Source of the DNA: Eledone cirrhosa
Taxonomy: Eukaryota
Reading direction: 5' to 3'
DNA: 64,000 bases
Assembly: GCA_964016885.1 (NCBI GenBank)
Contig: OZ024744.1
Coordinates: 57,784,001 to 57,848,000, forward strand
Positions 1,368 to 64,000 of the stretch are shown piece by piece (position 1 is the first letter of the stretch; every line of letters begins with the position of its first letter). The translations under genes were made by a program, and so were the position numbers. Under the pieces are notes generated by a model. That model made no database searches. It saw only the letters and a list, made by a program, of their open reading frames with translations, and was not told the DNA's origin.

Positions 1368-1910
1368 TGGTGGTGGTGGTGGTGGTGGTAGTGGTGGTGG
1401 TGGTGGTGGTGGTGGTGACGGTGGTGGTGGTGATGATGGTGGTGGTGGTGGTGGTTGTGGTGGTGATGATGGTGGTTGTGGTGGTGGTGGTGATGATGGT
1501 GGTTGTGGTGGTGGTGGTGATGATGATGATGGTTGTGGTGGTGATGGTTGTGGTGGTGATGGTGGTGGGTGTTGTAGTGGTGGTGGTGGTGGTAGTGGTG
1601 GTGGTGGTGGTAGTGGTGGTGGTGGTTGTGGTGGTTGTGGTGGTGGTGGTGGTGATGATGATGGTTGTGGTGGTGATTGTTGTGGTGGTGATGGTTGTGG
1701 TGGTGCTGGTGGTGGGTGTTGTAGTGATGTAGTGGTGGTGGTGGTGGTAGTGGGTGTTGTAGTGATGATGGTTGTAGTGGTGGTGGTAGTGGGTGTTGTA
1801 GTGATGGTGGTGGTGGTGGGTGTTGTAGTGGTGGTGGTGTTGTATGTGTGTGTGGTGGTGGTGGTGGTGGGGGGGGGGGGGGGGGGGGGTAGTGGTGATA
1901 GTAGTGGTTA
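1368..1910. repeat. (GGT)n degenerate microsatellite
   Basis: Long ggtggt/gatggt/gttgt array. Confidence 0.95.
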
Positions 1911-2241
1911 AAAGAGGGAGTATCCCAGAAATTAAATATATTTGATTCCTTTGATGTCTTGTAGAGAAAAGGGAGGAAAAAGAAAGGAAGAGTTTATGAA
2001 TGAATAAATAAATGAATGAATGAATGGAGGAAGAAATGAAACAAATTTACAAAGAAGAATAATAGAAATAAAAAATGAAAGTAAGAAAAAACATGGAAGG
2101 GAGGAAAGAAAAAAGAAAAAAAGAAAGAAAGAAAGGAATCGTTTTATATCCGCTTATCTGTGCTTGCATGGGTTGGATGGGCCTTTTCCAACACAGCATC
2201 TCTCCACTCTTAACGTTCCTTCATCATCTCATCAATGCGCA

Positions 2242-2289
2242 TTCCTGATGATTGCATACGAATGAAACAGTCCTAGACCTGTAGAAGCC
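2242..2289 (+). ncRNA. Type I hammerhead ribozyme motif (family A, copy 1)
   Basis: ttc-CUGAUGA(2245-2251)-ttgcatacgaat-GAAA-CAG-tcctagac-CUG-UA^gaa. Stem I is ttc/gaa, stem III is ACAG/CUGU, stem II is weak. Confidence 0.65.
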
Positions 2290-2407
2290 ATTTCTATATT
2301 AAATGTCTTTTGTTCTCACTCTATTTATGTAATGTATTGAATACTTTATTTACTGTGGTTACCCCGATTTCAGTCAGAATCTACATATTACATATATATA
2401 TATTATA

Positions 2408-2510
2408 TGGCTGAGTGGTTAGAGAATTGGATTCACAATCGTGAGGTTGTGATTTCGCGTCCTGGATGTGTTTTGTTCTTGAGCAAGACACTTTATTTCA
2501 CGTTGCTCCT
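2408..2510 (+). mobile_element. Truncated tRNA-derived SINE (same family as 8496-8857)
   Basis: Box A-like tggctgagtggttagag, then 'ttcttgagcaagacactttatttcac' shared with the copies at 8496 and 48432. Confidence 0.8.
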
Positions 2511-2753
2511 TCTACCTGGATTTGCAACCGATAGATAGTATTAGCAATTGGAAAGACCAATGGGAACATTGTTTCCTAGGTCTGATTTGATGAGCTCCAC
2601 CCAACTCGCCCAGTGAATGAGGTCTGGGACCTTGTCTATCGATTGTTGATATATATATATAGTATATGAGTCCCTGGTTCAATTGAGGATAACAACAGTT
2701 AGTAAGGTACTGAATACAGTAGTGGAGTGTAAACATCAAATTAATATAGAAAT

Positions 2754-2801
2754 GGCTTCTACAGGACTAGAACTATTTCATTTGAAAGAAATCATCAGGA
2801 A
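2754..2801 (-). ncRNA. Type I hammerhead ribozyme motif (family A, inverted copy)
   Basis: The minus strand reads ttc-CUGAUGA-tttctttcaaat-GAAA-UAG-ttctagtc-CUG-UA^gaagcc. It lies in an inverted copy (~2681-2801) of ~2242-2372. Confidence 0.65.
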
Positions 2802-2809
2802 ATCATCAG

Positions 2810-2851
2810 GGCTTTCTTGATGAATGAAACAGTTCTAGTCCTGTAAGGGCC
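2810..2851 (+). ncRNA. Degenerate hammerhead motif (family A, copy 3; stem II lost)
   Basis: ggcttt-c-UUGAUGA-at-GAAACAG-ttctagtc-CUGUA^agggcc. The arms ggcttt/agggcc can pair. Confidence 0.5.
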
Positions 2852-2886
2852 ATCTCTATATTACATTATATATATATATGTAGGAT

Positions 2887-2938
2887 ATTCTTGATCATTT
2901 CATATGAATGAAATAGTTCTAGTCCTATAAAAGTCATT
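2887..2938 (+). ncRNA. Decayed hammerhead motif (family A, copy 4)
   Basis: ttc-ttgatca-tttcatatgaat-GAAAUAG-ttctagtc-CUAUA; the core is mutated. Confidence 0.35.
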
Positions 2939-3067
2939 TCTATATATAATAAAAATCCCTCTACTCTACCAATGTATTGAGTACATTTTTTTTTATCTGT
3001 GCCCCCCCCCCCCCACACACACCTCGGGTATCTATTTATTACATATTATATATATTTATATATATAG

Positions 3068-3200
3068 TTAGATAGATAGACAGATAGATAGATAGTTAAA
3101 CTGACAGATAGATAGATTGATAGATAGACAGACAGAAGACAGACAGATAGATCGATAGATAGATAGATATAGATAGATGGATGGATGGATGGATAGATAG
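3068..3200. repeat. (GATA/GACA/GATG)n microsatellite
   Basis: Directly visible. Confidence 0.95.
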
Positions 3201-4415
3201 ATTTCTTCTTTAGCCACAAGTCTGCACAAGAAATGGGACAACATAAGGACATATTGCGGAGATTTTTATACAATCGTGTAAAAAGAGTAAAATTATAACA
3301 TTTAAAAAAATTTAACAATCGAAATCCCCAATAGTGGGAAGCATTACAAATGGGTTGTTTTACACCCCGTAGATAGAACGACCCACAACTCCAGGAGCAT
3401 GTTTTGCGACTGCTCCTTTCTTCTCTCCCCCCTCTTCTTCAACCTATAGGTTTATATACAAAGAAGGGCCCAATCACTCGGGCCATTTTTGCTACATTCA
3501 CCCACCTTTCAGTAAATTTACTGGGATGCAGTACCTCTCTCTCCACTCTGATTTTCCTTCTAAAGTGGTATCGAAAGGGAATGAGCTGTTGTCCGAAGAG
3601 AAAGGCATCTGTCCTCAGTCCTCTCTATCTTGTCCACGATATAACCTCTTTCACCATAGCCACTATACAGAGGAAAACCGCCTCTCTTTCGTTTTTGAAA
3701 GAAGTTGGGGGTTGATCCTTACTATGGACTCGGCAGTCAACTGGATTTGTCCCATATGCGACAGCAGTTGTTCTGCGTAGTTCCACAGGTCGGTTATGCC
3801 CGGGCAGTGTACAATTGCCTGCAAGACGGTTTCAATGTCCTGCTCGCATCTTGGACACGTCCTCTTGGAAAGATCCCTACCGGGGCGTCCGTGCCTGTAG
3901 ATCTTGTCACAAACTGGTAGAGCTCCTCGGTAGCACTGCCAGGCCAGGGACCTCTGGAAATTGTCCATAGGTCCCAGGCGGAAAGTCCTTCCAAACAGAC
4001 TAGTGAGCTCATCGTCTTCGACGCCCAGAGTCTCTCCGAGCCCGTCGTCGCCCTTGTGAGGTATTAACCCTCTATAGAATGTCGAAGTGGAGTCTCCACT
4101 GATTGCCGTGCCCGCTTGACACAGGACTGTAAGCACCTGATCGCATTCAATGTGCCAGGCGCCCATCTTCTTTGGTCTTCGCTTGACCCAGGACTGCAGC
4201 TCCGTCAGCGAGACAAGTTGCAGGAATGCCTGTCTCACAAACGGTGCCTACACCGGTTGGGGGTCGGTGAGGAATACCTGTAGATCCGTAGCCTCATCGC
4301 ATGTTTGAGCATCATCAGCCACGGCATTTCCAGCTCCCCTTTGGAAGGGTGCTGACAGCAGACCGATCTCCTCGCCAGGAAGAGCATGCGTTCCATCTTG
4401 GTGAGGTGTTCATGG
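3201..4415 (-). mobile_element. Tx1/L1-like LINE, 3' fragment (ORF2 C-terminus with CCHC finger, plus 3' UTR)
   Basis: ORF 3663-4238 has 'LAWQCYRGALPV...CPRC...ETVLQAIVHCP'. It is homologous to the elements at 24585-28400 and 30432-35428. (GATA)n flanks both sides. Confidence 0.85.
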
Positions 4416-9388: not shown

Positions 9389-9490
9389 CAAATAAATCCC
9401 CTTTTTTGTACTGTTGACCCTGTTATTCTCCACTTTTTCAATTTTATATATGCATATATATATGCATATATATATATATATATATATATA

Positions 9491-9750
9491 TTAATAAGAG
9501 GAATTCCAACTTTGTCTGATTTACTCGTTTTATTTACAATCCTTTAAAATTTATAATGGTATTATAATTATAATGGTATTATAATTCAATTAACACTTAA
9601 CATTTAATATTCTACCATACTATTTCATTATAATACCATTATAAATTTTAAAGGATTGTAAATAAAACTAGTAAATCAGACAAAGTTGGAATTCCTCTTA
9701 TTAATATAATCTTCTATACACAATCATACACACCCGTGTATATTTATCTA
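9491..9750 (+). mobile_element. Penelope-like element 3' terminus with an inverted partial duplication
   Basis: 9585-9750 is nearly identical to the reverse complement of 53838-54004. 9491-9568 is an inverted copy of 9627-9704. (TA)n flanks both sides. Confidence 0.9.
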
Positions 9751-12997: not shown

Positions 12998-16148
<3,151 letters not shown>

Positions 16149-16166
16149 TATTATTATTATTATTAT

Positions 16167-17725
16167 TTGCATTTATCTTGCTTTATGTTTATACGAGTTA
16201 TCACCAAGTCACAACCAGTGACCTCAAGAGACAACAAGGTCCGCCATGTTCAAGAAAGAACACACATATTCACACATGCATCCTTAGTGTTTAGACTTGT
16301 GATGTACTTATATTGACAGGATCTTCCTTAGTATATGGGCAGTTCCCATTAGTACTATCTTTTGTATTTCTCCTATACGCGGGTTTCCTGGGATTTGCGA
16401 TAAGTAGTCGTTAGACCCCTTAGGTATCATTCCCAGAGCGCCTACAACCACTGGTATTGTTTTAGTTCTCAATTTCCACATTTTTCCAATTTCTATCTCC
16501 AGGTCCTTATACTTGCTCAATTTTTCAAATGTTTTTATAGATACATTCTTGTCTATTGGAACAGACATATCAATTAGCAGGCATACCCTCCTTTGAAAGT
16601 CCTTCAATATTATATCAGGTCTATTTGCATCTATTTTTCGGTCTGTTTGAATGCTAAAGTTCCACAAGATTGAGATGTGATCTTTTTCAAGTATGGGAGG
16701 TGGTTGATGCTCCCACCAATTCTTTTGATGGGGCAGGTCAAAATGCTTGCACATTATCCAATGTATGTATTGTGCAGCTCTGTCATGCCTGTTTAGGTAT
16801 TCGGTTGGAGCTATAGGACTGCACATTGAAATTATATGGTCAATGGTCTCTGGTTGTTTTTTGCATACACGGCATAATGGGCTGCACCCATTTTTTATTA
16901 TGTTGGCTTGGTAATTTTTTGTTGGCAGACACTGATCTTGTGCGGATATAATCAGTCCTTCAGTCTCCGATTTCAGTCCAGAGGATGCCAGCCACTGATG
17001 GGTTAAAGTTTTGTCAACATCAGGATTGTTAGCTCGTTCTGGGTATTTTCCATACAGAGGCTTTTCTTGCCATTTCTTAGCCAGTTTCTGTAGCAGTTCT
17101 TTCTTTGCAGTTACTTTTACCTGCTTTGCTTTTTCTGTGTTTTCCATTTCAGCAGTAAATGGGACTTCTGAAATTTGTAGTCCATTACTGTATCTTTGTG
17201 CATCTTTTGTAATGGAATATGATCTTTTGGTGCTTTCGTATTTCAAAACGAGTTTGATCATCCAATCATGTGATTCCCTTAGATATGTGGATAATCCAAT
17301 TGTTGCAGTTTTCAACGCAATGTCTAACTGGATTAACCCACGTCCTCCTTCTTTCCTAGGGAGATATATTCTATCTATGTCTGCCTTAGGGTGATGCATT
17401 CTGTGCATGGTTAAGAATTTTCGGATTTTTGTATCGAGCCTACGGATCTCTGTGCTTGACCAGTTGATGACATTGTAACTGTAGGTTACTACTGGTATGG
17501 CAAGCGTGTTTATGGCATCGATCCTATTCCTTGCATTCAATTCCATTCTTAAGATTGCTCTGACTCTGCGGTAACATTCCTTCCTTATCCTTTCCCTCAT
17601 TGTCGAGTGCTTGATTCCGTCTCCTTCACAAACACCTAGATATTTGTAAGTTTGTTCTTGATCAAGCTCTCTTATCACGTTCCCCCGATCAAGATTAATG
17701 TCTGAACTCTTCAGCAGCTTTCCTC

Positions 17726-17726
<1 letters not shown>
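16167..17726 (-). mobile_element. R4/Dong-like element copy 2, more strongly 5'-truncated (ORF 16308-17678)
   Basis: Only a handful of amino-acid differences from copy 1. (TTA)n flanks both sides. Confidence 0.92.
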
Positions 17727-17778
<52 letters not shown>

Positions 17779-17779
<1 letters not shown>

Positions 17780-17833
17780 GCAGTTTCAGTAGAGCGTCAG
17801 ACCCCTATGCTTTGCAGCATAGAGTTATGGCTC

Positions 17834-24567: not shown

Positions 24568-24584
24568 TTGGTGAGATAGATACA

Positions 24585-27500
24585 TTTCTTTATTAGCCAC
24601 AAGGGCACAAAAGAAGGGGACAAATACAAATGGGGAGTTTACATACAGGTATATGAGAATAAAACTATTACTAAAACAACAAATAACAATTGAAATCCCC
24701 AATAGGGGGGAGGTGTTACACAGGGGTTGTACACACCCCGAAAAATTGTATAACCCTCATCTCCAGGAGTGAGTACTCCCTTCCACTCTTCCTCTTTTTC
24801 CTCAACCTACAGGCTTATATAGAGAGAAGGCCCAACCACTCGGGCCTTCTTTGCCACATTCAGCCACCTTTCATAAAATTTGCTGGGGTACAACACCTCT
24901 CTCTCCATCCTGATTCTTCTTCCAAAATGATATTTGAAAAAACGAATCAGTTGTTCGCCTTTTGTTCAGCCCTTTTAACCTCGTCCCCCATATAACCTCT
25001 TTCACCATAGCCATAACACATAGGAAAAACGCCTCTCCTTCGTTTTTGAAGGAGGGTGGCGGTTTGATCATGACAATGGACTCGGTGGTCAACTGGATTG
25101 GTCCCACCCGCGATAATAGTCGTTCTACATAGCCCCACAGGTTGGTAACGCCCGGGCAGTGTACAAATGCGTGCGCGACGGTTTCCTCGTCGCGCACGCA
25201 TCTCGGACAGATCTTTTACGAAGGGTCCCTGCCCGGGCGCCCATGTCTGTAGATCTTGTCTCGAACTGGTAGAACTCTCGGTAGCACTGCCAGGCCAGGG
25301 ACTTTTGGAAATTGTCCATCGGTCCCGGGCGGAAGGTCCTACCGAACAGACTGGCCAGTTCGTCCTCCTCTATGCCCAGAGTTTCTCCGAGCGCGTCGTC
25401 GCACAAGCTGCGGACCAACCCTCTATAGAATGACGAAGTGGAGTCTTCACTGATCGCCGGGTTGTTTGCCAGAGGACTGAGCGCCTGAGCACATTCGATG
25501 TGCCAGTCGCCCATTTTCCTCGGTATTTGCTTGACCCAGGACTGCAGCTCGGTCAGCGAGACGAGTCGTGGGAAGGCTCGCCTCACGAACGGAGCCCACA
25601 CCGGTTGTCCGGTGAGGAATACGTTGAGGTGCTGCAGCCTGAGCGCGTGTTTGCGCATCGTCAACCACGGCATCCCCAGCCCTCCGTTTGAAGGGTGTTG
25701 GCAGCAGATGGATCTTCTCACCAAAGGAGCCCGTTTCTTCCAAAGGAATTGGAAGAGCGCGCGCTCCATTTTGTTGAGCGTTTTGGCTGGACAAGGCACG
25801 ACGGTCAAGCGGTAGTAGATGACGGACGCTATAAAAGTGTTCGCCACCTCCGCTCGACCTTTCAAGGATAGTTTGCACTCGGCCCACTTCTGGGTGAGCG
25901 CAAACAACTTGGCCGTCACCTCGTTCCAGTTTTTCTCCACCTGGAGGTCAGGACCAAACCAAACCCCGAGCAGCTTTACCGGTCCTTCCGTCCAGCGTCT
26001 GACGACACCATCGGAGGCATTGGTTTGCCTCTCCACGTTCCGAGTTGCAAACCGACGGACTTGTCCCGGTTCAGCTTCGCTCCTGTGAAACTTTCGTATT
26101 CCTTCAGTAAGGTGCCGACCTCCCGGATTTGTGAGGTGCTCGACACCATTACTGTCAGGTCGTCGACTTAGGACAACGCTGCTTTTCGCAGTCCCTGTTC
26201 CAAAGGGATGCCCTGCAATAGCTCCAACTTCCGCGGTAGTGGCTCGAGAGTCAGTACGTACAGAAGGGAGGAGAGAGGGCATCCCTGTCGGATGGATCGC
26301 GTGATATAGAACGGCTCCGAGAGGTAGCCGTTCACCTTGACCCTTGAGCAGATGTTGCTGCTGTGCATTGCAGCAATCCAACCCCTGAACACGGGTGCGA
26401 CGCCTGGCGCCTGGAGCACTGCATCCAGGTAACGTTGGTCAACCCTATCGAAAGCCTTAGACTGATCCAAGTTGATCAGGGCCCCACCGAAGCCGGGTTT
26501 ATACCCTACCCTCTCTATGATGTATCGCATGAGGTGGAGGTTGTCGTGTATGGAACTGGTCTGGATTGCGCATGTCTGCGATTCTCCCACCAGGTTTTCG
26601 ACGACAAGCGCCAGCCTCTTTGCCAACACCTTGGCCAAAATATGTAACTCTGTGTTTAGCAGAGTTATGGGCCGGAAGTTGTCGTCCCTTTATTCTCGTC
26701 CTTCCTGACTAACGTGACTACGCCCTTGGTCACAGAACTGGGAATTCTCCCATTCTGCTACCAGTTGCAGTAGACCGTTTCCAGGAGACCGGAGAACAAG
26801 TCCGGCATTGCTACGTAAAATTCGTATGGAGTCAAGTAGCAAGCGTCCGTCTTGGTCCTTCAAAGATCGAATCGTGGACTTGTTGCCACTTTTCGCCTCT
26901 GTCACTCGGGCCTAGCTAACAGCTTTCGTTGCCTCGTTTCCCAGAGTACGTATTTTGCTCCTGACAACGCAACCTTTGTGCTTTGCGTCGAAGAACTGGT
27001 CCAAGGCCGTTATCATCGCAAGCACGCTGGCTCCGTTGCCACTCCTAAGTGCCTCTTCTACTTTATCTACCAGTTCCTCTTCGGTCTTATTTCTATCTAA
27101 CACTAATTCTTTACTAAAACCTATCGAGTCTAATCTGAATGCCCTCTTAAGAGAGTACCATCATCTGTTGTTGACAATGGCCCCCGTCAAGTGCTGCTTA
27201 ACTAAAGTGCTAATCCGTCCGGCTTTGCAAGTCGGTAACGACAAGTTCAGCTTCCAGTAGCCGAGTCCCTGTCTATGGGTTCTATCAAGGTTGACTAAGT
27301 AGGTCACTAGTTTGTGATCTGAATAGGCAACCATGAACATTTGTGGGCAGCTTAACATGTCCCTATCACTAACTCTAACTAGAAACCTATCTAGGTACGA
27401 TCTAGATGTTCCGCTGTGGTTGTTCCACGTCCACAGTGGCACAGTTGGAAAATCTAGTCGATATCTATCGGCCATATGAAATCGGCCGATTAACTGTTTG

Positions 27501-33400: not shown

Positions 33401-35428
33401 ATCATAGAGAGGGTGGTTAGGGAACCTGGCACGGGTGGGGCCCTGATCAACTTGGATCAATCCAAAGCATTCGATAGGGTCGACCATCGGTACCTGGTGA
33501 CGGTCCTCGAGGCAGCCGGTTTCGGGCCTGTTTTCAGGGGTTGGATCGCTGCGATGTACAGCAACATCTGCACAGTTGTGAGGGTGAACGGTCACCTGCC
33601 GCAGCTGTTCAGCATCATGCTCTCAGTCCACCAGGGTTGTCCCCTGTCGTCCTTCTTGTACGTATTGGCTCTCGAGACGTTACTGCAGAAACTGGGGGCG
33701 ATGAGGGGCGTCCCACGCGAACTAGGATGCGGGAAATCCGAGTCGGCTTACACCGACGACGTCACCGTGGTAGTGTCGAGCACCAGACACGTCCAAATGC
33801 TCGGTACCGCTCTCAAGGAATACGAAGCGGTGACAGGAGCAAAGATAAACCAGGAAAAGTCGGTGGCCTGCAGCTCGGCACCTGGAGAGGAAAGTCCATG
33901 CCGTCCGACAGCGTCGTGGGGCGTGGGACGGACGGATCGGTTAAATTGCTCGGGGTCTGGTTCGGACCGGACCTCCAGATGGAGAAAAACTGGAATGAGG
34001 TGACGAGCAAGGTGGCCTCCCTCACCCAGAAATGGGCCGAGAGGAGGCTGTCCCTGAAAGGCCGGGCGGAGGTGGCGAATGCGTACATCGCATCCGTCAT
34101 CTGCTACCTCCCCACCGTCGTCCCTTGCCTCCTCTTCCACTTTTTGTGGAAGGGACGCGCTACCATGGTCAGACGATCCATCTGCTGTCAACACCCGTTG
34201 CGTGGAAGACTGGGCATGCCATGGCTGATGATGCGCAAACATCCGCTGAGGCTGCGACATTTCTGCTACCTCCTTGACGGTGAACAGGTGTGGTCGCCGT
34301 TCGCCAGGTACGTTTTCCCACAGCTCGTCTCCTTGACGGAGCTGCAGTCTTGGGTCAGAAAAAGACTGAGGGATAGCGCTTGGAAACTGGAATGTCTCCA
34401 GGCGCTCACTGCCCTCTGCAAGTTGGGCACCAGTATCGGTGGAACATCCACCTCGGTGTTCTATAGAGGACTAGTGGAGGGGAAGACGACGTTCTCGGAG
34501 AGATCCTGGGCGTCGAAGAAGATCAGCTGTTTGCTCTCTACCGGAGAACTTTCAGCCCAGGGCCTATGGATAACTTCCAAAAATCCCTGGCCTGGCAGTG
34601 CTACCGGGGAGCGCTGCCGGTTCGAGATAAGCTCTCCAGGCACGGAAGTGCCGTCAGCCGAGCCTGTCCGAGATGCGCGCAGAGCGACGAAACCGTCGTG
34701 CTCGCACTCGTTCAGTGCCCGCGCATTGCTGACTTGTGGAGCTATGTCGAACAGTTGCTGTCGCGTGTAGGACTGATCCGGTTATCGACTGAGTCGATTG
34801 TGCAGATGGTCTCGCCGTTTTTTTTCGAGGAGGAAGGGCAGGCGGTTTTCATCTGCTTGGTGGCCATGGCGAAAGAGATTGTGTGGTGGACAAGGTTGAA
34901 AGGGTTAAAGACAGAGACTTTCCTCTTCGGCGAATCCCTAATTAACTTTTTCAAGTTTCATTTGAAGAGGAAAATCAGGAGGGAGAGGCAAGTGCTGCCT
35001 TCTAGCAAGTTTGTTGAAAGGTGGGTGAATGTAGCGAGAATGGTCCGAGTGAACGGGACCTCTCTGAATATACGTCTGTAGTTTGAGAAATGGAAAAATT
35101 GAGAGAGGGTGCTTGCCCTGGTGGTCAGGGTGGCCGTGGTCTTTTGTGTGGTTTTCGCCACGAGTAACCCTCGGTTTCCCCCCTATTGGGGAATTTTTCA
35201 TTGTTTCAATTTTCATTTTTATTGTTTATATATATATATGTTTCTATGTCTTTTTTTTCTTTTCTTATATAAATAATGATTTCTTTATTTATTGTTTATT
35301 TATTCTTTTCTTATATAAATAATAAAAATATTTACACGCACAAAACCCACATCGTACCGTCCTGTACCGTGCTGTACCGTCTGTAATGTTTTTCTTGATG
35401 TCAGCCCTTGTGGCCAATAAAGAAAGCA
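30432..35428 (+). mobile_element. Near full-length Tx1/L1-like LINE, disrupted
   Basis: ORF1 region 30433-31830 has the zinc knuckle CYLCGSKGHLRAFC (~30943). ORF2 runs from ATG 31863 to 35081 with APE (VGDWN), RT (LDQSKAFDRVD, QGCPLS, YTDD) and CPRC. The 3' end 'cccttgtggccaataaag' is followed by (ATT)n. Confidence 0.92.
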
Positions 35429-51016: not shown

Positions 51017-52452
51017 ATAATAATAAATTTGAAGACTAAAATCCAAAGAGGGCTCGATAAGGATAAATATATATCAAATATATAAGAACCGTAGAGCAAA
51101 TATTTATTAAAATAACAGATTAAAGTTTAAGCAAAGAATCGCTGCTTTCACCCTTAACGGGATCTTCTGAAAAATAACAAAGTCAATCTGTGATCGCAGA
51201 AGAGAATATTTCAAAAAACGTTGCAACAGGAGGAAGACAGGAAGACGATATTTTGGTTCGTGGAAACGTTCCCTGGCAAAGAACGGGAAAAAACGAATAT
51301 AATACGTCATTATTTGGAGCGGTGAAAAACAATTACACGCAAAGACAGTTGATTGTATTTATTTGTTTTATTCTATATTCTATTTACTATTCACTGTCTG
51401 GCTTCGCTCACTCATCCACACATGTCTGTCTACTAACCTTGTAATTATAAGTATTTATATATTTTATGCCAATTTTAAAATATATTACATTATGATATAG
51501 ATCCTTATTACTTACCGTTTATTATATATAACATTATGATATTTAAACTTTATATATCATGTAAGATGTCTGGATTTTTTAATATTTTAATATTGTAATA
51601 TGTAACATTATGATATTTAGACTTTACATATCATGTTAGATGTCTGTATATTTTTTTCTGTAACATCATATTTTTTCTGTAACATCATAATTGTTCCCTG
51701 TACCATTATAGTTTTTTTGAGTATTATATTATATGATTTATATTTCCTCATTTATTATGTAACCCAGTATGAATCATTTTGTACATATTGTTTATGGTAA
51801 TTTGTTAATATAATGTTAACATTTTATCATTGTATTTCATTGACATCTATATTGTTTCTGTAAATTAACCGGGGATTATCTATTCTACTTTATTATATTG
51901 TATTGAATTATATAATTTTGTTGTTTATTATTTGTTATAAGTGTTTCTTGTAATTATATCATATTATTGCCTCATGTATATTGGGTAGATGTATTAGCAT
52001 TATTTTCACTATTACCATGCTTATTTTTAATATTCAAACTTCTAATAGGGCTTAATTTCTGTGTAATAGAACATAGATATGTGTATTGTTATATGTGTGT
52101 GTGTGTGTGTGCGCGCACATATATACATGTATATATTGTACCTTTTGATTTTTAATTTGGAATTTTAATGTTGGTATAAATATATTATTATTATAATGTA
52201 TTATATTGTGTTATATATAATTCCTGCTCTATATAACCAAATTTGTTTAGATTTAGGTTGGTGGCTTTGGACTATATTTGTAATATGGTTCTTAATGTTA
52301 TCTACATCCTTAGTTATTATAATTTTATTATTTTTATCTTTATTTTCATTTTTATTATCGTATATCTTTGCAAGACATTAGTGTATGTACACTCCATATT
52401 CTTCAGAGTTTCTGGCTTGTATCTGCCGATATTACCTCTTGTTGTTTTGATT

Positions 52453-52490
52453 GCCCTGATGAGTCCTAAATAGGACGAAACATTGTCGGC
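52453..52490 (+). ncRNA. Canonical compact type I hammerhead ribozyme followed by AATAAA
   Basis: gcc-CUGAUGA-GUCCU-aaau-AGGAC-GAAA-C-auu-G-UC^ggc-taataaa. All core nucleotides are intact, the triplet is GUC and stem III is minimal. Confidence 0.92.
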
Positions 52491-52546
52491 TAATAAAAAC
52501 TTTTGATGTATTAAAGGATTCTTTGTTTTACTCTCTTAATTTTTTG

Positions 52547-53019
<473 letters not shown>

Positions 53020-53070
53020 TGAAGAATTATGAAAATAATGATGTATTGAAGGCTTCTTTGATTTATTTTC

Positions 53071-53147
<77 letters not shown>

Positions 53148-53677: not shown

Positions 53678-53839
<162 letters not shown>

Positions 53840-54000
53840 GTAAATATACACGGGTGTGTATGATTGTGTATAGAAGATTATATTAATAAGAGGAATTCCA
53901 ACTTTGTCTGATTTACTCGTTTTATTTACAATCCTTTAAAATATATATAATGGTATTATAATGAAATAGTATGATAGAATATTAAATTCTAAGTGTTAAT

Positions 54001-54039
54001 TGAACAAGCACTTTCATGCTTTCGCAATCTTCAGGTTCA
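54001..54039 (-). ncRNA. Minimal hammerhead (no stem II) in the PLE 3' pseudo-LTR
   Basis: The minus strand reads tgaac-CUGAAGA-ttgc-GAAA-GCAU-gaaa-GUGC-UU^gttca, with a 5-bp stem I and 5-bp stem III. Confidence 0.85.
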
Positions 54040-54419
54040 TAATATGTGGTGACAGTCGAGTTTGCAATTTTCAACTGTAATGAGATGGGTAAATTTCCTA
54101 TCTTTTATACATTTTTTACAGAGAAAAGTGGCTCCAGAATGCTAAGCCCTGTAAACTGTATTTCGACCAATCAGTGTGTAGTTTCACTGAATTACTACAG
54201 CTGATTGGTTTAAGCGTCACGGCTGGTTGAGCATGCTAACGACCAATAGTCATATCCAACGTATCAATTGTTTTGCTATGATGAGAAATGATGAAAATAG
54301 CATTTTCTATTAATCATCACCATCAACATCACTTTTATTATTATTATTGTTGTTGTTGTTGTTGTTGTTTTTAGTGGTCGTGGTCATAGTGGTAGTAGAA
54401 GTAATACCCCTAAACGTTA

Positions 54420-57400
54420 TTATTGTTCATTTAGCTTGGGTTTGAATTTATTAATAAAATTCTTTTCTTTGATTTTTCTCTTGATTTCACTTGGGCTGTG
54501 TAATTTGTAGAATGGGAATATTATAAATATTCCCTGACCACATGTTGCCAGGTGGCCGCTTAGGGGTATCTGACGGACATTTGGGTCTCTGATTTGTTGA
54601 CGGTGTACCCGTGCACGTTCCGATAGTGCATTTCCAGTTTGACCGACATATAGTTCTTCACAATTCGGGCATTTAATGCAGTAAATTAGATTTCTGCTTT
54701 TGCAGTTCATATTTGCATTTGGGAGTATTTTTCCAGTTTTTGTTTTCATATATTGACCGGCGTGTATGGATTGACATGTGCCGCATCGACTATCATTGCA
54801 TTTAGATACAGTGAATGATTGGTCTTTGTTGTTAAGGTCAAAACTTTGCTTTTGTTAGTAATTGCTTCAAATTTTTTGGCTGTCTTTTACTAAGAGTCAA
54901 AGATCGATCTGTGATTAAGCCTTTTAATTCATTACTTTGAGCAATGATCGGTAGGTTTGCTTTGGCAGTGTTGAAGATATTCTGGTGACATGGGTTGTGT
55001 GTCATTATAAATGGTATGACCAGTTCTTGGTTTCTTCTTCCTTGGGTTGTTCTAAGTTGTTGTATAGGTATTTTTATAGCCCGCTATATGCCATTTTCTA
55101 TAAGTAGAGATATGTATTTTTGTTTGAGCAAAAATTCTCTTTGTTCTGTTAGGCGTTTGTATCTTCTACAATGGTACAAATTCTTCTGGCTAGGCAGTAT
55201 GGGATGTTGCGTTTTGTATGAGGTGGATGGTACGACTTAAAATTCAGATATTGATGGGTGTCTGTGTGTTTATAATATATATCCGTGGTAATGGTGGTGT
55301 CGTTTTTGATTATCATTATATCTAGGAATGGTAATTTGGTCCTACTCATCTCTTTTGTGAATTGGAGAGATGGGTCTAAGTTATTCAGGAGGATATTGAA
55401 CTCATCCAGAGTATCTAGAGATTCTGTCCAGATGATGAAACAGTCGTCAAGGTATCTCTTCCAAGATTTTTCAATGTACTTTCTAAAGTCAGTACTATAT
55501 TTTTCCTCTATTTCTTGGTAGAGTTGTTGTTCTAAGTATCCCATTACAGAGTTCGTGTAAACGGGAGCAAACTTCGTTCCCATCGCTGTGCCTCTAATTT
55601 GGATGTAATTCTTTCCATTGAAGAAGAAAGTGTTGTTTTCCAGAATAAGTTTAACTGCGTCTAATATAAATGGCGCTGTGAATCTAATGGGAATCACTTC
55701 ACTATGTTTTTCCACCCAGTATTTAACCGCCTTTATTCCTAAATCATGTGTAATGTTGGTGTAAAGGCTTACCACATCAAAACTGAGTAGAAGTGAATTC
55801 GTTTCCGCGATTTTGGGAAGATGGGACAGGAAGTCGATATCATCCCGGATGAAACTGGGTATATGAATACATAGTGGTTTCAAAATAATGTCAACAAAAT
55901 TGCTTAGACGGTGAGTGGGGCATGTTGGACCAGCTATAATAGGTCTAAGTTTTAAGTCTTTTGGGTGTAATAATTTAATGTACTCACTGTTTTGTTCTCT
56001 TACTGCCAGCTGTATTTCTTTTGACTTGTGAACTTTCGGTAGGCCATACAGGTTGCTGGGTTTCGGCTCAAAATTGGTGATGTAGTCTCTTTCCTTATCA
56101 GTAAATGAGTTGTGGTATTTTGAAGCCAGGTTGTTGATCTTCTTCATGATGTTGTGGTCTATATTTGACGGTATTTCGTGATAGAATGTTGTGTCTTTCA
56201 GTTGTTCCTCAACCAAATCCTTGTAGTATTCAGTATCCATTATAACAACTGCACCCCCTTTATCTGCTTGTTTAATTATTATTGTTTTATCATTTTGTAT
56301 ACGTTTAAGTGCAGACATTTCTGATTTGTTAATGTTTGGCCTAACATTAGTATTATGTCTAAGAGGAAATGTAGACAGGATGTCAATGTATTGGTCGAGA
56401 TAAATATTTCTTCCTTTTGGCGGAGTGAAATTTGATTTATTCTTTACTAGTGATTCATCACTCTCATTATTTTTATCAGCGAAGAATTCTACAAGACGTA
56501 ATTTTCGACAGAATTCTTGGGTATCCTCCTTCAGTTCTTGGTGGTTGACTGTTGGAGTCGGTGTGAATTTCAGTCCTTTTGACAGAATTTGCATTTCATC
56601 ATTGTCAAGATCTCTTTTAGATAAATTAATTATTTTAGGATCTACGTGTACAGCTGTTTTGGGTATGTTTCCTCCTGGAGTTTTTCTTTTTCCGGTTTTT
56701 GTTGTCCTGACGTTAAAAAATGGATTTTTCTCTGTTCAGGATTTATATTCCTGTTGGTGTTCGCTTGATGAACTTTTGGTCGTGATATTATATTTGGTTT
56801 CGTTATGTATTTTGTCGTATTTTTGGTATTCTGTATATTATTTTTCTTCCTGTTAGCATTATTTTTAACAATCTGGGAAAATGACCTAGGTTTGCTTTCA
56901 GGTTTAGATCGTTTTTTCGTCCAGTTTCTTGTGGGCAATCTCTGTTGAGATCTTGAGAGTGATCTGGTTATTCTACGTTTTGTTTCCACATTCCTTGTTG
57001 GTAGTCTCTGTTGAGATCTTGAGAATGATCTCCTGGTTTTACTACTTCTCATGGTCTGGTCAAAGGAATATCTATCGTGTTTGTGCTTTTCGTTCATGTT
57101 GTGTGCGATAGGGTGTTTTTGTAGAAAAAGCGAAGAGTTATTACCGTAGTTCTTCTTTGATTCAAGGTAAGGTGAGTGTTTGTGTTGGCACGTGTTCTGG
57201 CGTATGTTGTGTTGATGAGATTGTCCACTTTTAATGCTTTTTCTCAGGGTTCCAGAGTCTTTACCGTAATTTGCCGCATATTCATCGAGAAATAATTGTT
57301 TCTGCTGCCATACCTTTCTTGATTTGTTTTCTTCTTTTGAGATATCTCCGATCCATAGTTCTCGTAGTTTTTCAGCTATAATACCAGTCGTTAGCTTTGA

Positions 57401-57430
57401 AATTTCAACTTCAATTTGGTCATCAATAGC

Positions 57431-57433
<3 letters not shown>
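54420..57433 (-). pseudogene. PLE polyprotein (basic N-terminus, RT, GIY-YIG endonuclease) with frameshifts
   Basis: LSKGLKF, IKQADKGGAVV, YGLPKVHK, LRPII, FDVVSLYTNI, GTAMG, WKRYLDD, PFLD (55149-56594); LIYCIKC...YVGQTG...R...H...E...LN (54420-54749). Confidence 0.93.
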
Positions 57434-57488
<55 letters not shown>

Positions 57489-61611: not shown

Positions 61612-62000
61612 TATATATAATGTTTATAGTTAAACAGGGTTATAGGGGAAAATATTCACGATGCCCCATTAGTCTCATTACCCACTCAATGAGACGAGAT
61701 TTCATTACTCACTCAATGAGACAAGATTTCATTACTCACTCAATGATACAAGATTTAAACATATTAAACATGTAAATATATACTCAGAGTGCTTACCAAA
61801 GGTTATTTGTAATGAGTGTGATTGCACATTTTCTCGGACAATGGTTTCCATGATATAGTCTGATAAAGTAAGTATGTTGTAGTGCACCTGAGCACTGTAC
61901 ACAATAATTTTCATTATATTATATTTGAAACTTGTTTCTCAATAGCTACATGGTATAAAAACTACAGACCATCAACTGGGGCTCTCAGCACTTTAGTAGG

Positions 62001-64000
62001 TTGCCATATCCCATCTTAGGAGCGGATTTCCTCCACAACTTCTCTTTAACTGTGGACGTCCGTGGCCAACGCCTGGTGGATAACATCACCGGCTTTTCAA
62101 TTCATGGCCAGGAAGCCAATGCCCCAATAGTCAGCCCCATGTTCTTTATCACTGCCGCTGGAGACGCCTACCATGCGTTACTGGGTTCTTTCCCGGAGCT
62201 CACCGATGGAAATTTTCGAGTCACTGACCCAACACACTCGACCGAACATTTCGTTTCCACCACCGGTGCCCCAGTGTTTTCGCGTCCACGCCGCTTACCG
62301 ACGGAAAAATTAAAGGCAGCACGGTCCGAGTTCGACCATATGCTGCAGCTGGGCATTATTCGCCCATCTACGAGTCCTTGGGCTTCACCGTTACACATGG
62401 TGCCCAAGACTTCCGGCGACTGGAGAACCACTGGGGATTATAGGAGGTTAAATGCCATGACCGTCCCGGATAGGTATCCCATTCCCCATCTCCACGATTT
62501 TGCATCTTCACTGCAGGGGTGTAAGATTTTTTCTAAGTTAGATTTAGTGCGAGCCTACCACCAAATTCCGGTCAGGAAGGAGGATATTCCGAAAACGGCG
62601 ATTACAACCCCTTTCGGATCATTCGAATTTTTTACCATGCCTTTCGGACTCAGAAACGCCGCTAGCACTTTTCAGCGGTTCATAGACGAGATTCACGCGT
62701 GGTCTGGACTTCGTTTATGCTTACATAGACGATATTCTCGTCGCTAGTTCCTCTCCGGAAGAGCATATGCGCCACATGCTTCTCTTATTTCAGCGACTTC
62801 AGGATTACCGCGTTCGTGTGAATCCTACAAAGTGTGTTTTCGGTTCCACTTCCCTACATTTTTTAGGCCACCTCATCGACGCCGAAGGTATTAGGCCGGT
62901 CCCTCAGCGAGTTCAAGCCATACAGGAGTTACCTCCGCCTACTACACTTCACCAGTTGCGTCACTTCTTAGGCCTAATCAATTTCTATAGGCGTTTCATT
63001 CCTCATTGTGCTAATTGGCTATCTTCCCTTACTGACATTTTAAAAAATCGTCGTAAGAAGAATGAAGACATTTCCTTGACACAAGGACAGCTTCAGGACT
63101 TCCAGACTGCCAAGACAGCACTCGCTAGTTCATCTTTGCTAGCCCACCCGGTACCAGAGGCCAAGCTTTCGCTTTGTGTTGATGCATCTGATACCGCTGT
63201 AGGAGCAGTTTTACAGCAGTCTTACGCTGAAAAACAACAACCTTTGGCATTTTTCTCGAGGAAGTTGAAACCAGCAGAAACGCGTTATAGCACGTTTGGG
63301 CGGGAATTATTAGCCATATATCTGTCGGTTAAACATTTCTCTCATATTCTTGAGGGGAGAAATTTTACGGTTTTTACCGACCACAAGCCGTTGACCTTCG
63401 CTTTGAGGGCCAAAGCCGACAGATATTCGCCCAGAGAGACAAGGCACCTGGACTACGTTTCACAATTTACAAACGATATCCAGCACATTGCCGGCTCGCA
63501 TAACATAGTTGCAGACGCATTATCACGTTTGCCAATTAGCTCCATCTCGTCATCCCAGGAGATCGACTTAGGTCGTTTAGCTGCAGACCAACCTGCACTC
63601 CAATCGTTGGACACTCTTTCTACTGAATTTGCGACTTGCATTTTCAAATATCTGCCCTTGTCCACCACCGACAAGCAGATTCTATGTGATGTATCTACTG
63701 ATGCACCACGACCATTTGTTCCTGAGACTCACCGTCGAATTGTGTTCCTGGCTTTGCACAACATTTCTCATCCAGGATCTGCTGCCACAGTTAAACTCAG
63801 TTATACAGCCAGATTCTTCTGGCCAAATATGAGGCGCGACATTGCTGCTTAGTGCCGTTCCTGTATCGCTTGCCAGAAATCGAAGATCCATAGACACATC
63901 GGGACTCCACTTGGTACTTTCAGTACTCCAGATGCTCGGTTCCAACACATCCACATTGACATCGTTGGACCTTGGCCATTCAGCAGTGGATATTCTTACA
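62001..64000 (+). mobile_element. Ty3/Gypsy LTR retrotransposon pol (protease end, RT, RNase H, integrase start); frameshift near 62690, stop at 63850; runs off the window
   Basis: [82 protein letters not shown] and HIDIVGP. Confidence 0.95.

Follow-up and report, generated by a model that had tools for sequence, protein, structure and literature searches.

Genomic 5' ends of a Penelope-like element family pile up at its predicted hammerhead cleavage site in Eledone cirrhosa

Introduction

In EN+ Penelope-like elements (PLEs) of the Neptune and Nematis type the hammerhead motif lies in the pseudo-LTR, and its function has been called unclear (PMC8557442). For the minimal type I hammerheads of metazoan PLEs it was stated that there is no in vivo evidence of cleavage (PMC4209133). 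In the Poseidon element PAc of the green anole, cleavage was found to be dispensable in vitro, and no RNA-seq reads were seen to begin or end at the site (PMC11167929). In the available text of all three accounts, in vivo cutting by PLE hammerheads and the purpose of such cutting are stated as open (PMC4209133, PMC8557442, PMC11167929). Cut monomers of retrozymes have been reported to serve RtcB as substrates in vitro, giving circles along with some linear dimers, and PLEs have been proposed as the mobilisers of non-LTR retrozymes (PMC7229834; bioRxiv 10.64898/2026.07.22.740005).

Here we analyse a 64,000-nucleotide stretch of the Eledone cirrhosa genome (the window), which holds a PLE with a hammerhead motif and, at 9.5 kb, a short dispersed copy of the 3' end of the same family, and we follow the 5' ends of this family through the genome. 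A young, high-copy family that records the cut at single-base precision turns the question of in vivo cutting into a count on assembled genomes.

Results

The Family-1 Element and Its Hammerhead Motif

The following features of the PLE, called family 1, were found in the window.

53838..57440, minus strand: family-1 Penelope-like element, a 5'-truncated broken copy (the intact unit elsewhere is 4202 bp)
55152..56735, minus strand: reverse transcriptase frame (RVT_1, E=6e-06, 26.5 bits, below the cut-off of 29.6), with an early stop in this 54-kb copy
54423..54854, minus strand: C-terminal GIY-YIG endonuclease frame (GIY-YIG, E=2.5e-07, above the cut-off)
54001..54039, minus strand: type I hammerhead motif from a motif scan, with the predicted cut between 54006 and 54005

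Positions in the element are numbered from the predicted cut, +1 being the first base 3' of it (window 54005, minus strand) and -1 the last base before it. A DNA search of the 3.0-Gb genome recovered family-1 copies at 99-100% identity (40 scored of 918 candidates); an intact tandem has a unit of 4202 bp. Family 1 carries two frames, 129-1556 and 1466-3790 from +1, with an overlap of ~90 bases, and not a single ORF; at locus L031 one frame of 775 aa contains DKG and YLDD. A zinc-finger-like cysteine linker, C-x4-C-x2-C, lies at residue 650 of the frame between the reverse transcriptase (RT) and the endonuclease. The RT with a C-terminal GIY-YIG domain is that of an EN+ PLE, and partial tandems with pseudo-LTRs, an inverted 5'-truncated copy and a tail at one end were also found, as in EN+ PLEs. 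By these predicted features family 1 is a PLE of the Neptune/Nematis type, the clade name being taken from the linker only. Two other RT frames are present in the window, at 13296-17804 on the minus strand (RVT_1, E=2e-28) and at 61959-62747 on the plus strand (RVT_1, E=7e-17), as well as three diverged copies (69-76%) of a dispersed repeat at 3192-4377, 24575-25723 and 34147-35086.

The motif scan of both window strands gave three candidates, a single one of which, with its core at 54034, falls within an element. This predicted ribozyme has a 5-bp stem I, a CUGAAGA core, a U.U-closed 3-bp stem II, GAAA and a palindromic stem III. The family-typical stem III is an 8-nt palindrome at -8..-1, in which the 54-kb copy carries one substitution. 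The minimal type I pattern (core CUGANGA ... GAAA ... UH, with a stem I of 4-5 bp) and the palindromic stem III / loop 3 are present; the G10.1-C11.1 pair and the long (7-8 bp) stem II are absent, and the cut triplet is UU. Since U.U stands in place of G10.1-C11.1 and stem II is short, the motif is a variant and not a typical minimal type I member. The Rfam scan of the window gave nothing at 54001-54039 up to E=1, so that the family-1 motif has no RF00163 match; the 115 matches of the scan, mostly TA/CA repeats, all fell below gathering except for the hammerhead of family 2 (see below). Family 5, another hammerhead family of this genome, has the same fold, built from entirely different stems I, II and III, the three stems changing together between the families. 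A predicted family-1 dimer pairs -8..+5, and a 4-bp inverted repeat (a small hairpin) spans -1..+12, across the predicted cut site; other repeats of 4-6 bp are common along the element.

A Two-Armed Insertion at 9.5 kb

The short copy at 9.5 kb consists of three parts.

9487..9568, minus strand: inverted arm with the short 3' end, covering element +44 to +127 and merging with a TA run; 81/82 identical to the forward arm
9569..9585, no strand assigned: 17-bp tandem duplicate of the inner end of the inverted arm, its last T common to the forward arm
9585..9749, plus strand: forward arm, from +2 (or +3) of the element to about +168, including the tail of the long 3' end, followed by a TA run

The original prediction had this copy begin 1 nt past the predicted cut, match through to the 3' end of the element and follow an inverted duplicate of part of itself with 78-bp arms, and the sequence bears this out. 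Positions 9585-9749 (+) align to 54004-53838 (-) with 95.2% identity over 167 columns, identifying them as the 3' end of family 1; the inverted arm agrees with the forward arm at 81 of 82 positions over 9487-9568, or over 78 bp if counted from 9491, and its last bases merge into the TA run. Missed earlier was the repetition, read from the sequence, of 9552-9568 as 9569-9585 between the two arms. As T9585 belongs both to this duplicate and to the forward arm, the start of the forward arm is ambiguous, at +2 or +3, i.e. 1 or 2 bases after the predicted cut. The copy carries the subfamily marks 17A/18C and the 54-kb copy 17G/18A; since the two belong to different subfamilies, the former was not copied from the latter.

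Inversions occur at many positions in long family-1 copies, where head-to-head joints are the norm, and the two-armed form is therefore ordinary. Short copies with two arms mostly have one that stops at +127 and a second that runs on to about +170 to +188, as would be expected from two internal RT start sites by analogy with PAc (PMC11167929). The copies did not support a fixed order of fold-back in which the arm with the long tail always comes first. Which of the arms extends further 5' varies, a pattern that fits two cDNAs primed separately, the joints being ambiguous. The feature at 9491-9750 is a two-armed PLE insertion of ordinary form, within a real class of copies whose 5' edge lies at the predicted hammerhead cut. 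It had been granted at the outset that a single case might reflect chance truncation, and indeed this one copy is not beyond chance by itself; the genome-wide count is.

Family-1 5' Ends Across the Genome

Family-1 5' ends were collected with a filter for non-element bases at six C/G positions in -55..-46 together with an exact anchor at +33..+54, which selects ends in -45..+32. It returned 448 matches in the 3-Gb genome, of which 100 were listed in genome order, representing 83 sites on the first two contigs. Curation by hand dropped 38 sites (intact copies with small indels, internal deletions, and arms whose partner extends further upstream) and merged one local duplicate (L087b and L087c, one locally duplicated site), leaving 44 ends as a hand-curated sample from the first two contigs of one genome. 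They were distributed as follows: 6 at -45..-19, 1 at -18..-3, 24 at -2..+3, 8 at +4..+6 and 5 at +7..+32, with a sharp upstream edge. The even spread of truncation points that would have spoken against the original prediction was thus not found in family 1, as 24 of the 44 ends fall within 5 of 77 positions (binomial 1.5e-17, ~2e-17, against an even spread; 2e-16 after 16 windows).

Of 16 simulated joins per start position, 11-13 passed the filter wherever the start lay between -18 and +4, and about half as many further out; since its pass rate is even across -18..+4, the filter does not produce the edge at +1. Whole-genome bins of matched design gave 171 matches for -2..+4 against 52 for -17..-12, or ~150 against 24 after intact copies with small indels were subtracted by eye (11 of 100 listed and 28 of 52, respectively), some sites being counted on both arms. 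The flanks differ, both subfamilies are present, and private variants are common to the arms of a site and not shared between sites, which argues for separate insertion events and rules out that the joints at +3 represent one amplified palindromic element. A tandem joint from +48 to +1, which duplicates +1..+48 and whose second copy starts at the cut, gave 5 matches (L278-L281); it is probably one amplified variant and was not counted as five events.

Where the joint is to a plain TA run, counts by eye (100 of 194 matches listed, with a pattern that favours downstream ends) placed 25 sites in a step and not in a spike, with 3 at -19..-3, 10 at -2..+3 and 12 at +4..+11; half of the ten (5/10) extend to -1 or -2. 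Breaks on the 3' side with foreign sequence showed no pile at -1|+1 among the matches listed (100 of 111), with a lossy filter that misses the joint of the chimera L282 described below.

The inverted repeat at -1..+12 might itself be a hot spot for fold-back or twin annealing of longer cDNAs, its position on the ribozyme cut being a coincidence. About 17 of the 100 listed matches of the -2..+4 bin use its 4-bp stem, with partial use in many others (by eye), so that the exact end of these commonest joints, from -1 to +3, is undefined; moreover, head-to-head joints occur at many positions in family 1. Similar repeats are, however, common elsewhere in the element, and the 8-nt palindrome at -8..-1, a joint at which would pass the main filter, yet centres no joint among the loci examined, three matches of the -2..+4 bin using part of it. 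Neither the blunt +1|+1 joints nor the plain-flank starts at +1 nor the chimeras involve the stem, and joints free of microhomology so far also tend to peak at +1. We regard such a hot spot as very improbable and favour ends set by the hammerhead cut.

Informative Joints at +1 and the Edge at -73

Twenty loci were chosen as informative from the main filter and the -2..+4 bin, and are not a random sample. At L272 the flank is unrelated DNA and a full-length element starts at +1. Blunt +1|+1 palindromes are seen at L274 and L275, and L273:493-9262 (G000:C1:21871500-21881400) is an 8.8-kb near-perfect palindrome whose two full-length 4.39-kb arms, both 99-100% like the reference element, meet at -1/+1. 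Plain flanks adjoin +1 at L084, L098 and L277. Among the 20 chosen loci, joints that have no microhomology land exactly on +1.

The main 5' edge of the family lies further upstream.

54078..54078, minus strand: main family-1 5' edge, position -73, likely a transcription start

Ends at -81..-35 gave 1406 matches, with a sharp upstream edge and a downstream tail of ~10 bases (by eye, 100 listed), and the summed contig depth (run X1) falls from ~400,000 at 54055-54069 to ~15,000 at 54100-54114, a more than twentyfold drop beyond -73. Contigs of runs X1, X4, X5 and X6, which do not display RNA ends, served solely for this step in depth. This position would be the start of the uncut family-1 transcript. 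A few of the listed -73 matches have an extra G before -73, a weak sign that is possibly cap-derived. Families 1 and 2 each have a sharp main 5' edge, and solo copies from this edge to the 3' end dominate; the main edges of both families are likely transcription starts. The edge at +1 has the same shape as that at -73 and very roughly a tenth of its number, the filters being different.

This same shape, a sharp edge with a tail, would also be given by a second transcription start at +1, or by a 5'-to-3' exonuclease stopping at a bound protein, either falling by chance on the ribozyme site. Such an origin would explain why families 2 and 3 have no edge at their cuts, and the stretch at +3..+9 of family 1, which we take to be initiator-like, counts in its favour. 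A second start, however, needs a coincidence to one base in ~260 bases and another one in family 5 to account for the chimeras, and the initiator-like A would be +5, downstream of the observed edge. Among the rival explanations we hold this to be the least probable, and we prefer to read +1 as the end left by the hammerhead.

Chimeras With Families 5 and 6

At L282:4843-5845 (G000:C2:377417800-377424300), 1003 bp of family 5 lie exactly between -1 and +1 of family 1. A family-5 unit of 995-1003 bp joined to family-1 +1 was found in 4 matches at three loci genome-wide, the two other loci being the following.

L283, 784-1786 (G000:C2:399520800-399523300): family-5 chimera, the unit beginning at a blunt palindrome
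L356 (G000:C4:146104800-146107400): family-5 chimera, the unit beginning on a TA flank

All three chimeric units begin exactly at family-5 +1, after family-1 -1 in L282, at the blunt palindrome in L283 and on the TA flank in L356. Free family-5 copies (L059, L281 and the tandem L357) read straight through the point of the chimera joint, which is the predicted cut of their own hammerhead. This hammerhead has a 5-bp stem I, a core with a variable seventh base, a U.U-closed 8-bp stem II, a palindromic stem III and a UU triplet. L357 is a 1000-bp tandem with two hammerheads 1000 bp apart, and the longest stop-free stretch of family 5 is 84 aa; at L358 the exact family-5 motif was not found. Tandem repetition of a non-coding unit that carries a type I hammerhead is a retrozyme feature, and as the unit of 995-1003 bp is outside the retrozyme range of 150-450 bp, we call family 5 retrozyme-like only. 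Tandem 465-bp units at L164:1-1400, each with a type I hammerhead motif, are likewise retrozyme-like, and a related motif is present in L148.

L282 and L356 differ at 79 of 990 positions in their family-5 part and at 2 of 163 in their family-1 part (Fisher p=0.0007), and this unequal divergence implies at least two separate chimera events. Each joint of family 5 to family 1 has a 2-base TT overlap, which fixes its position to three bases. That DNA recombination on a likeness of two bases should have struck twice at the predicted cuts of both partners is hard to credit. Matches with an apparently longer palindrome might have been family-1 variants with compensatory changes in stem III, a reading that was dropped as these loci are the family-5 chimeras.

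Moreover, at L287:639-964 a family-6 hammerhead with a U3-A8 core is joined to family-1 +1, one base short. Family 6 is a repeat of ~300 bp (free copies L176, L297, L078 and L353) whose 10-nt stem III palindrome varies yet stays palindromic.

Other Hammerhead Families in the Same Genome

A second hammerhead family in the window served as a control.

52450..52494, plus strand: family-2 Penelope-like hammerhead, control (RF00163, 37.8 bits, gathering 34), predicted +1 at 52488

Family 2 is autonomous and has an RT frame; a second, diverged family-2 fragment in opposite orientation, with a short inverted arm, lies at window 52927-53075. All 60 family-2 matches were examined and 22 rows dropped or merged, and only 1 of the 38 curated ends falls at -2..+3 (Fisher 1e-7 against family 1). 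A run-off edge is seen at -707..-709 (window about 51776-51779) in 16 of the 30 best copies. Thirteen of the 38 ends cluster at -9..-3 (window 52479-52485), just upstream of the predicted cut and 3' of the GC-rich stem II, perhaps reflecting a polymerase pause.

Because these -9..-3 ends cannot come from cleavage, they keep alive the possibility that RT stalls at a folded, uncut hammerhead, either at stem I (+1..+5) or at the stem III palindrome paired between two RNAs. The cluster, in a window chosen after seeing the data, indicates that structure-linked stops near a hammerhead exist, and the dimer predicted for family 1 pairs -8..+5. The matching zone of family 1, -13..-3, nevertheless holds none of the 44 ends, and few ends lie at the 3' foot of a stronger 8-bp hairpin at -73..-47 (by eye). 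Stalling also leaves L282 unexplained, where a foreign unit, opened at the predicted cut of its own hammerhead, lies inserted between -1 and +1. We therefore consider stalling unlikely, while granting it slightly more weight than the other two rivals, and retain run-off on cut RNA as the preferred reading.

Family 3 gave no edge at the cut among the first 30 of 704 matches, with 12 at -2..+3 and 5 at -6..-3, indel rows kept. For family 5 alone, the first 30 of 282 matches include 26 non-intact ends; 3 of them lie at +1 and most at +12, the point at which element and TA run merge. The edge at the cut site is family-specific and does not extend to families 2 and 3.

Discussion

Family-1 copies end 3' at two places (+127, and about +170 to +188), and their 5' ends form two sharp edges, at -73 and +1. 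We consider that many copies begin at the predicted cut because RT runs off ribozyme-cut RNA, with a probability of about 0.8. Run-off on self-cleaved RNA probably accounts at once for the edge, for the blunt joints, for the chimeras and for the full-length copy that begins at +1. The like shape of the edges at -73 and +1, and the fold that families 1 and 5 retain with different stems, speak for it; the missing edge in families 2 and 3, the hairpin across the cut site, the atypical motif and the dispensability of cleavage in PAc (PMC11167929) speak against it. As judged from genomic sequence, the edge and the cut-to-cut chimeras are likely a DNA record of the hammerhead cutting its RNA in living cells. 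The suggestion that insertions could preserve such a record, made originally from the copy at 9585, is accordingly supported for family 1 as a whole and not for that single copy, the cleavage being what we infer from the insertions.

The course of events might be pictured as follows. Position +1 would be the 5' end left by hammerhead self-cleavage in germ-line cells, and -73 the start of the uncut transcript, whereas the two 3' ends would correspond to internal RT start sites (after PMC11167929). The cDNA end would pair over 0-4 bases with the other arm or a TA-rich target, losing 0 to about 9 bases, and this loss together with annealing would give the tail of ends at +2..+9 and the copy at 9585. 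Cut RNA would be a minor template, for very roughly 1/10 of the short copies, and would yield mostly dead short copies; a full-length element may also receive its 5' end in this way. Chimeras would form when RNAs of different ribozymes are occasionally linked at their cut ends, either by an RNA ligase, which couples a cyclic-phosphate to a 5'-hydroxyl terminus, or by the RT jumping between templates; both routes would give the chimeras observed, and neither is preferred. We lean, by a small degree, towards the wider proposal that hammerhead cuts act as RNA recombination points: different families would be joined cut-to-cut in vivo, a retrozyme-like monomer would gain the Penelope RT-start segment and enter the genome, and an atypical U.U/UU variant would set the 5' ends of both short and full-length copies.

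The insertion record separates cutting from non-cutting families and singles out a specific variant ribozyme. The cut-to-cut chimeras would directly link retrozyme-like RNAs physically to the Penelope machinery that has been proposed to move them. The kind of element is already known; in the CC-licensed PMC and bioRxiv texts searched, we found no report of PLE copies starting at a hammerhead cut or of cut-to-cut chimeras, and a record of in vivo cutting for PLEs is apparently unreported in that literature.

Family 1 resembles the Neptune and Nematis EN+ PLEs in its RT with C-terminal GIY-YIG domain, cysteine linker and partial tandems with pseudo-LTRs, as well as in the adjoining inverted 5'-truncated copy, the tail at one end, the microsatellite targets and the hammerhead in the pseudo-LTR (PMC8557442). 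It differs from them in having two overlapping frames instead of one, a tail of about 45-60 bp instead of 30-40, and a 5' edge at the cut, no such edge being described in the available text of that account (PMC8557442). With PAc of the anole it would share two internal RT start sites that match the genomic tail and extension of both target strands, besides a predicted dimer and a hammerhead upstream of the putative RT start sites; unlike in PAc, genomic copies of family 1 start at the cut site (PMC11167929).

The minimal type I PLE hammerheads have the same core boxes, a stem I of 4-5 bp and a small palindromic stem III suited to activity as a dimer, and the U3-A8 core of family 6 is a variant described among them; families 1 and 5 depart from them by U.U in place of G10.1-C11.1 and by the UU triplet, and family 1 also by its short stem II (PMC4209133). 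Family 5, whose tandem units are non-coding and bear one type I hammerhead each, is like the non-LTR retrozymes, although its unit is ~1 kb in place of 150-450 bp; a retrozyme-like monomer joined to a PLE cleavage product is not described for retrozymes in the available text of these sources (PMC7229834; 10.64898/2026.07.22.740005).

R2, in which an HDV-like ribozyme determines the 5' end, offers a parallel in another class of ribozyme and retroelement, where cleavage is normal and not, as here, minor beside an uncut transcript and family-specific; in both, the cut site is mirrored in genomic 5' junctions, with microhomology priming and extra bases (PMC3774820).
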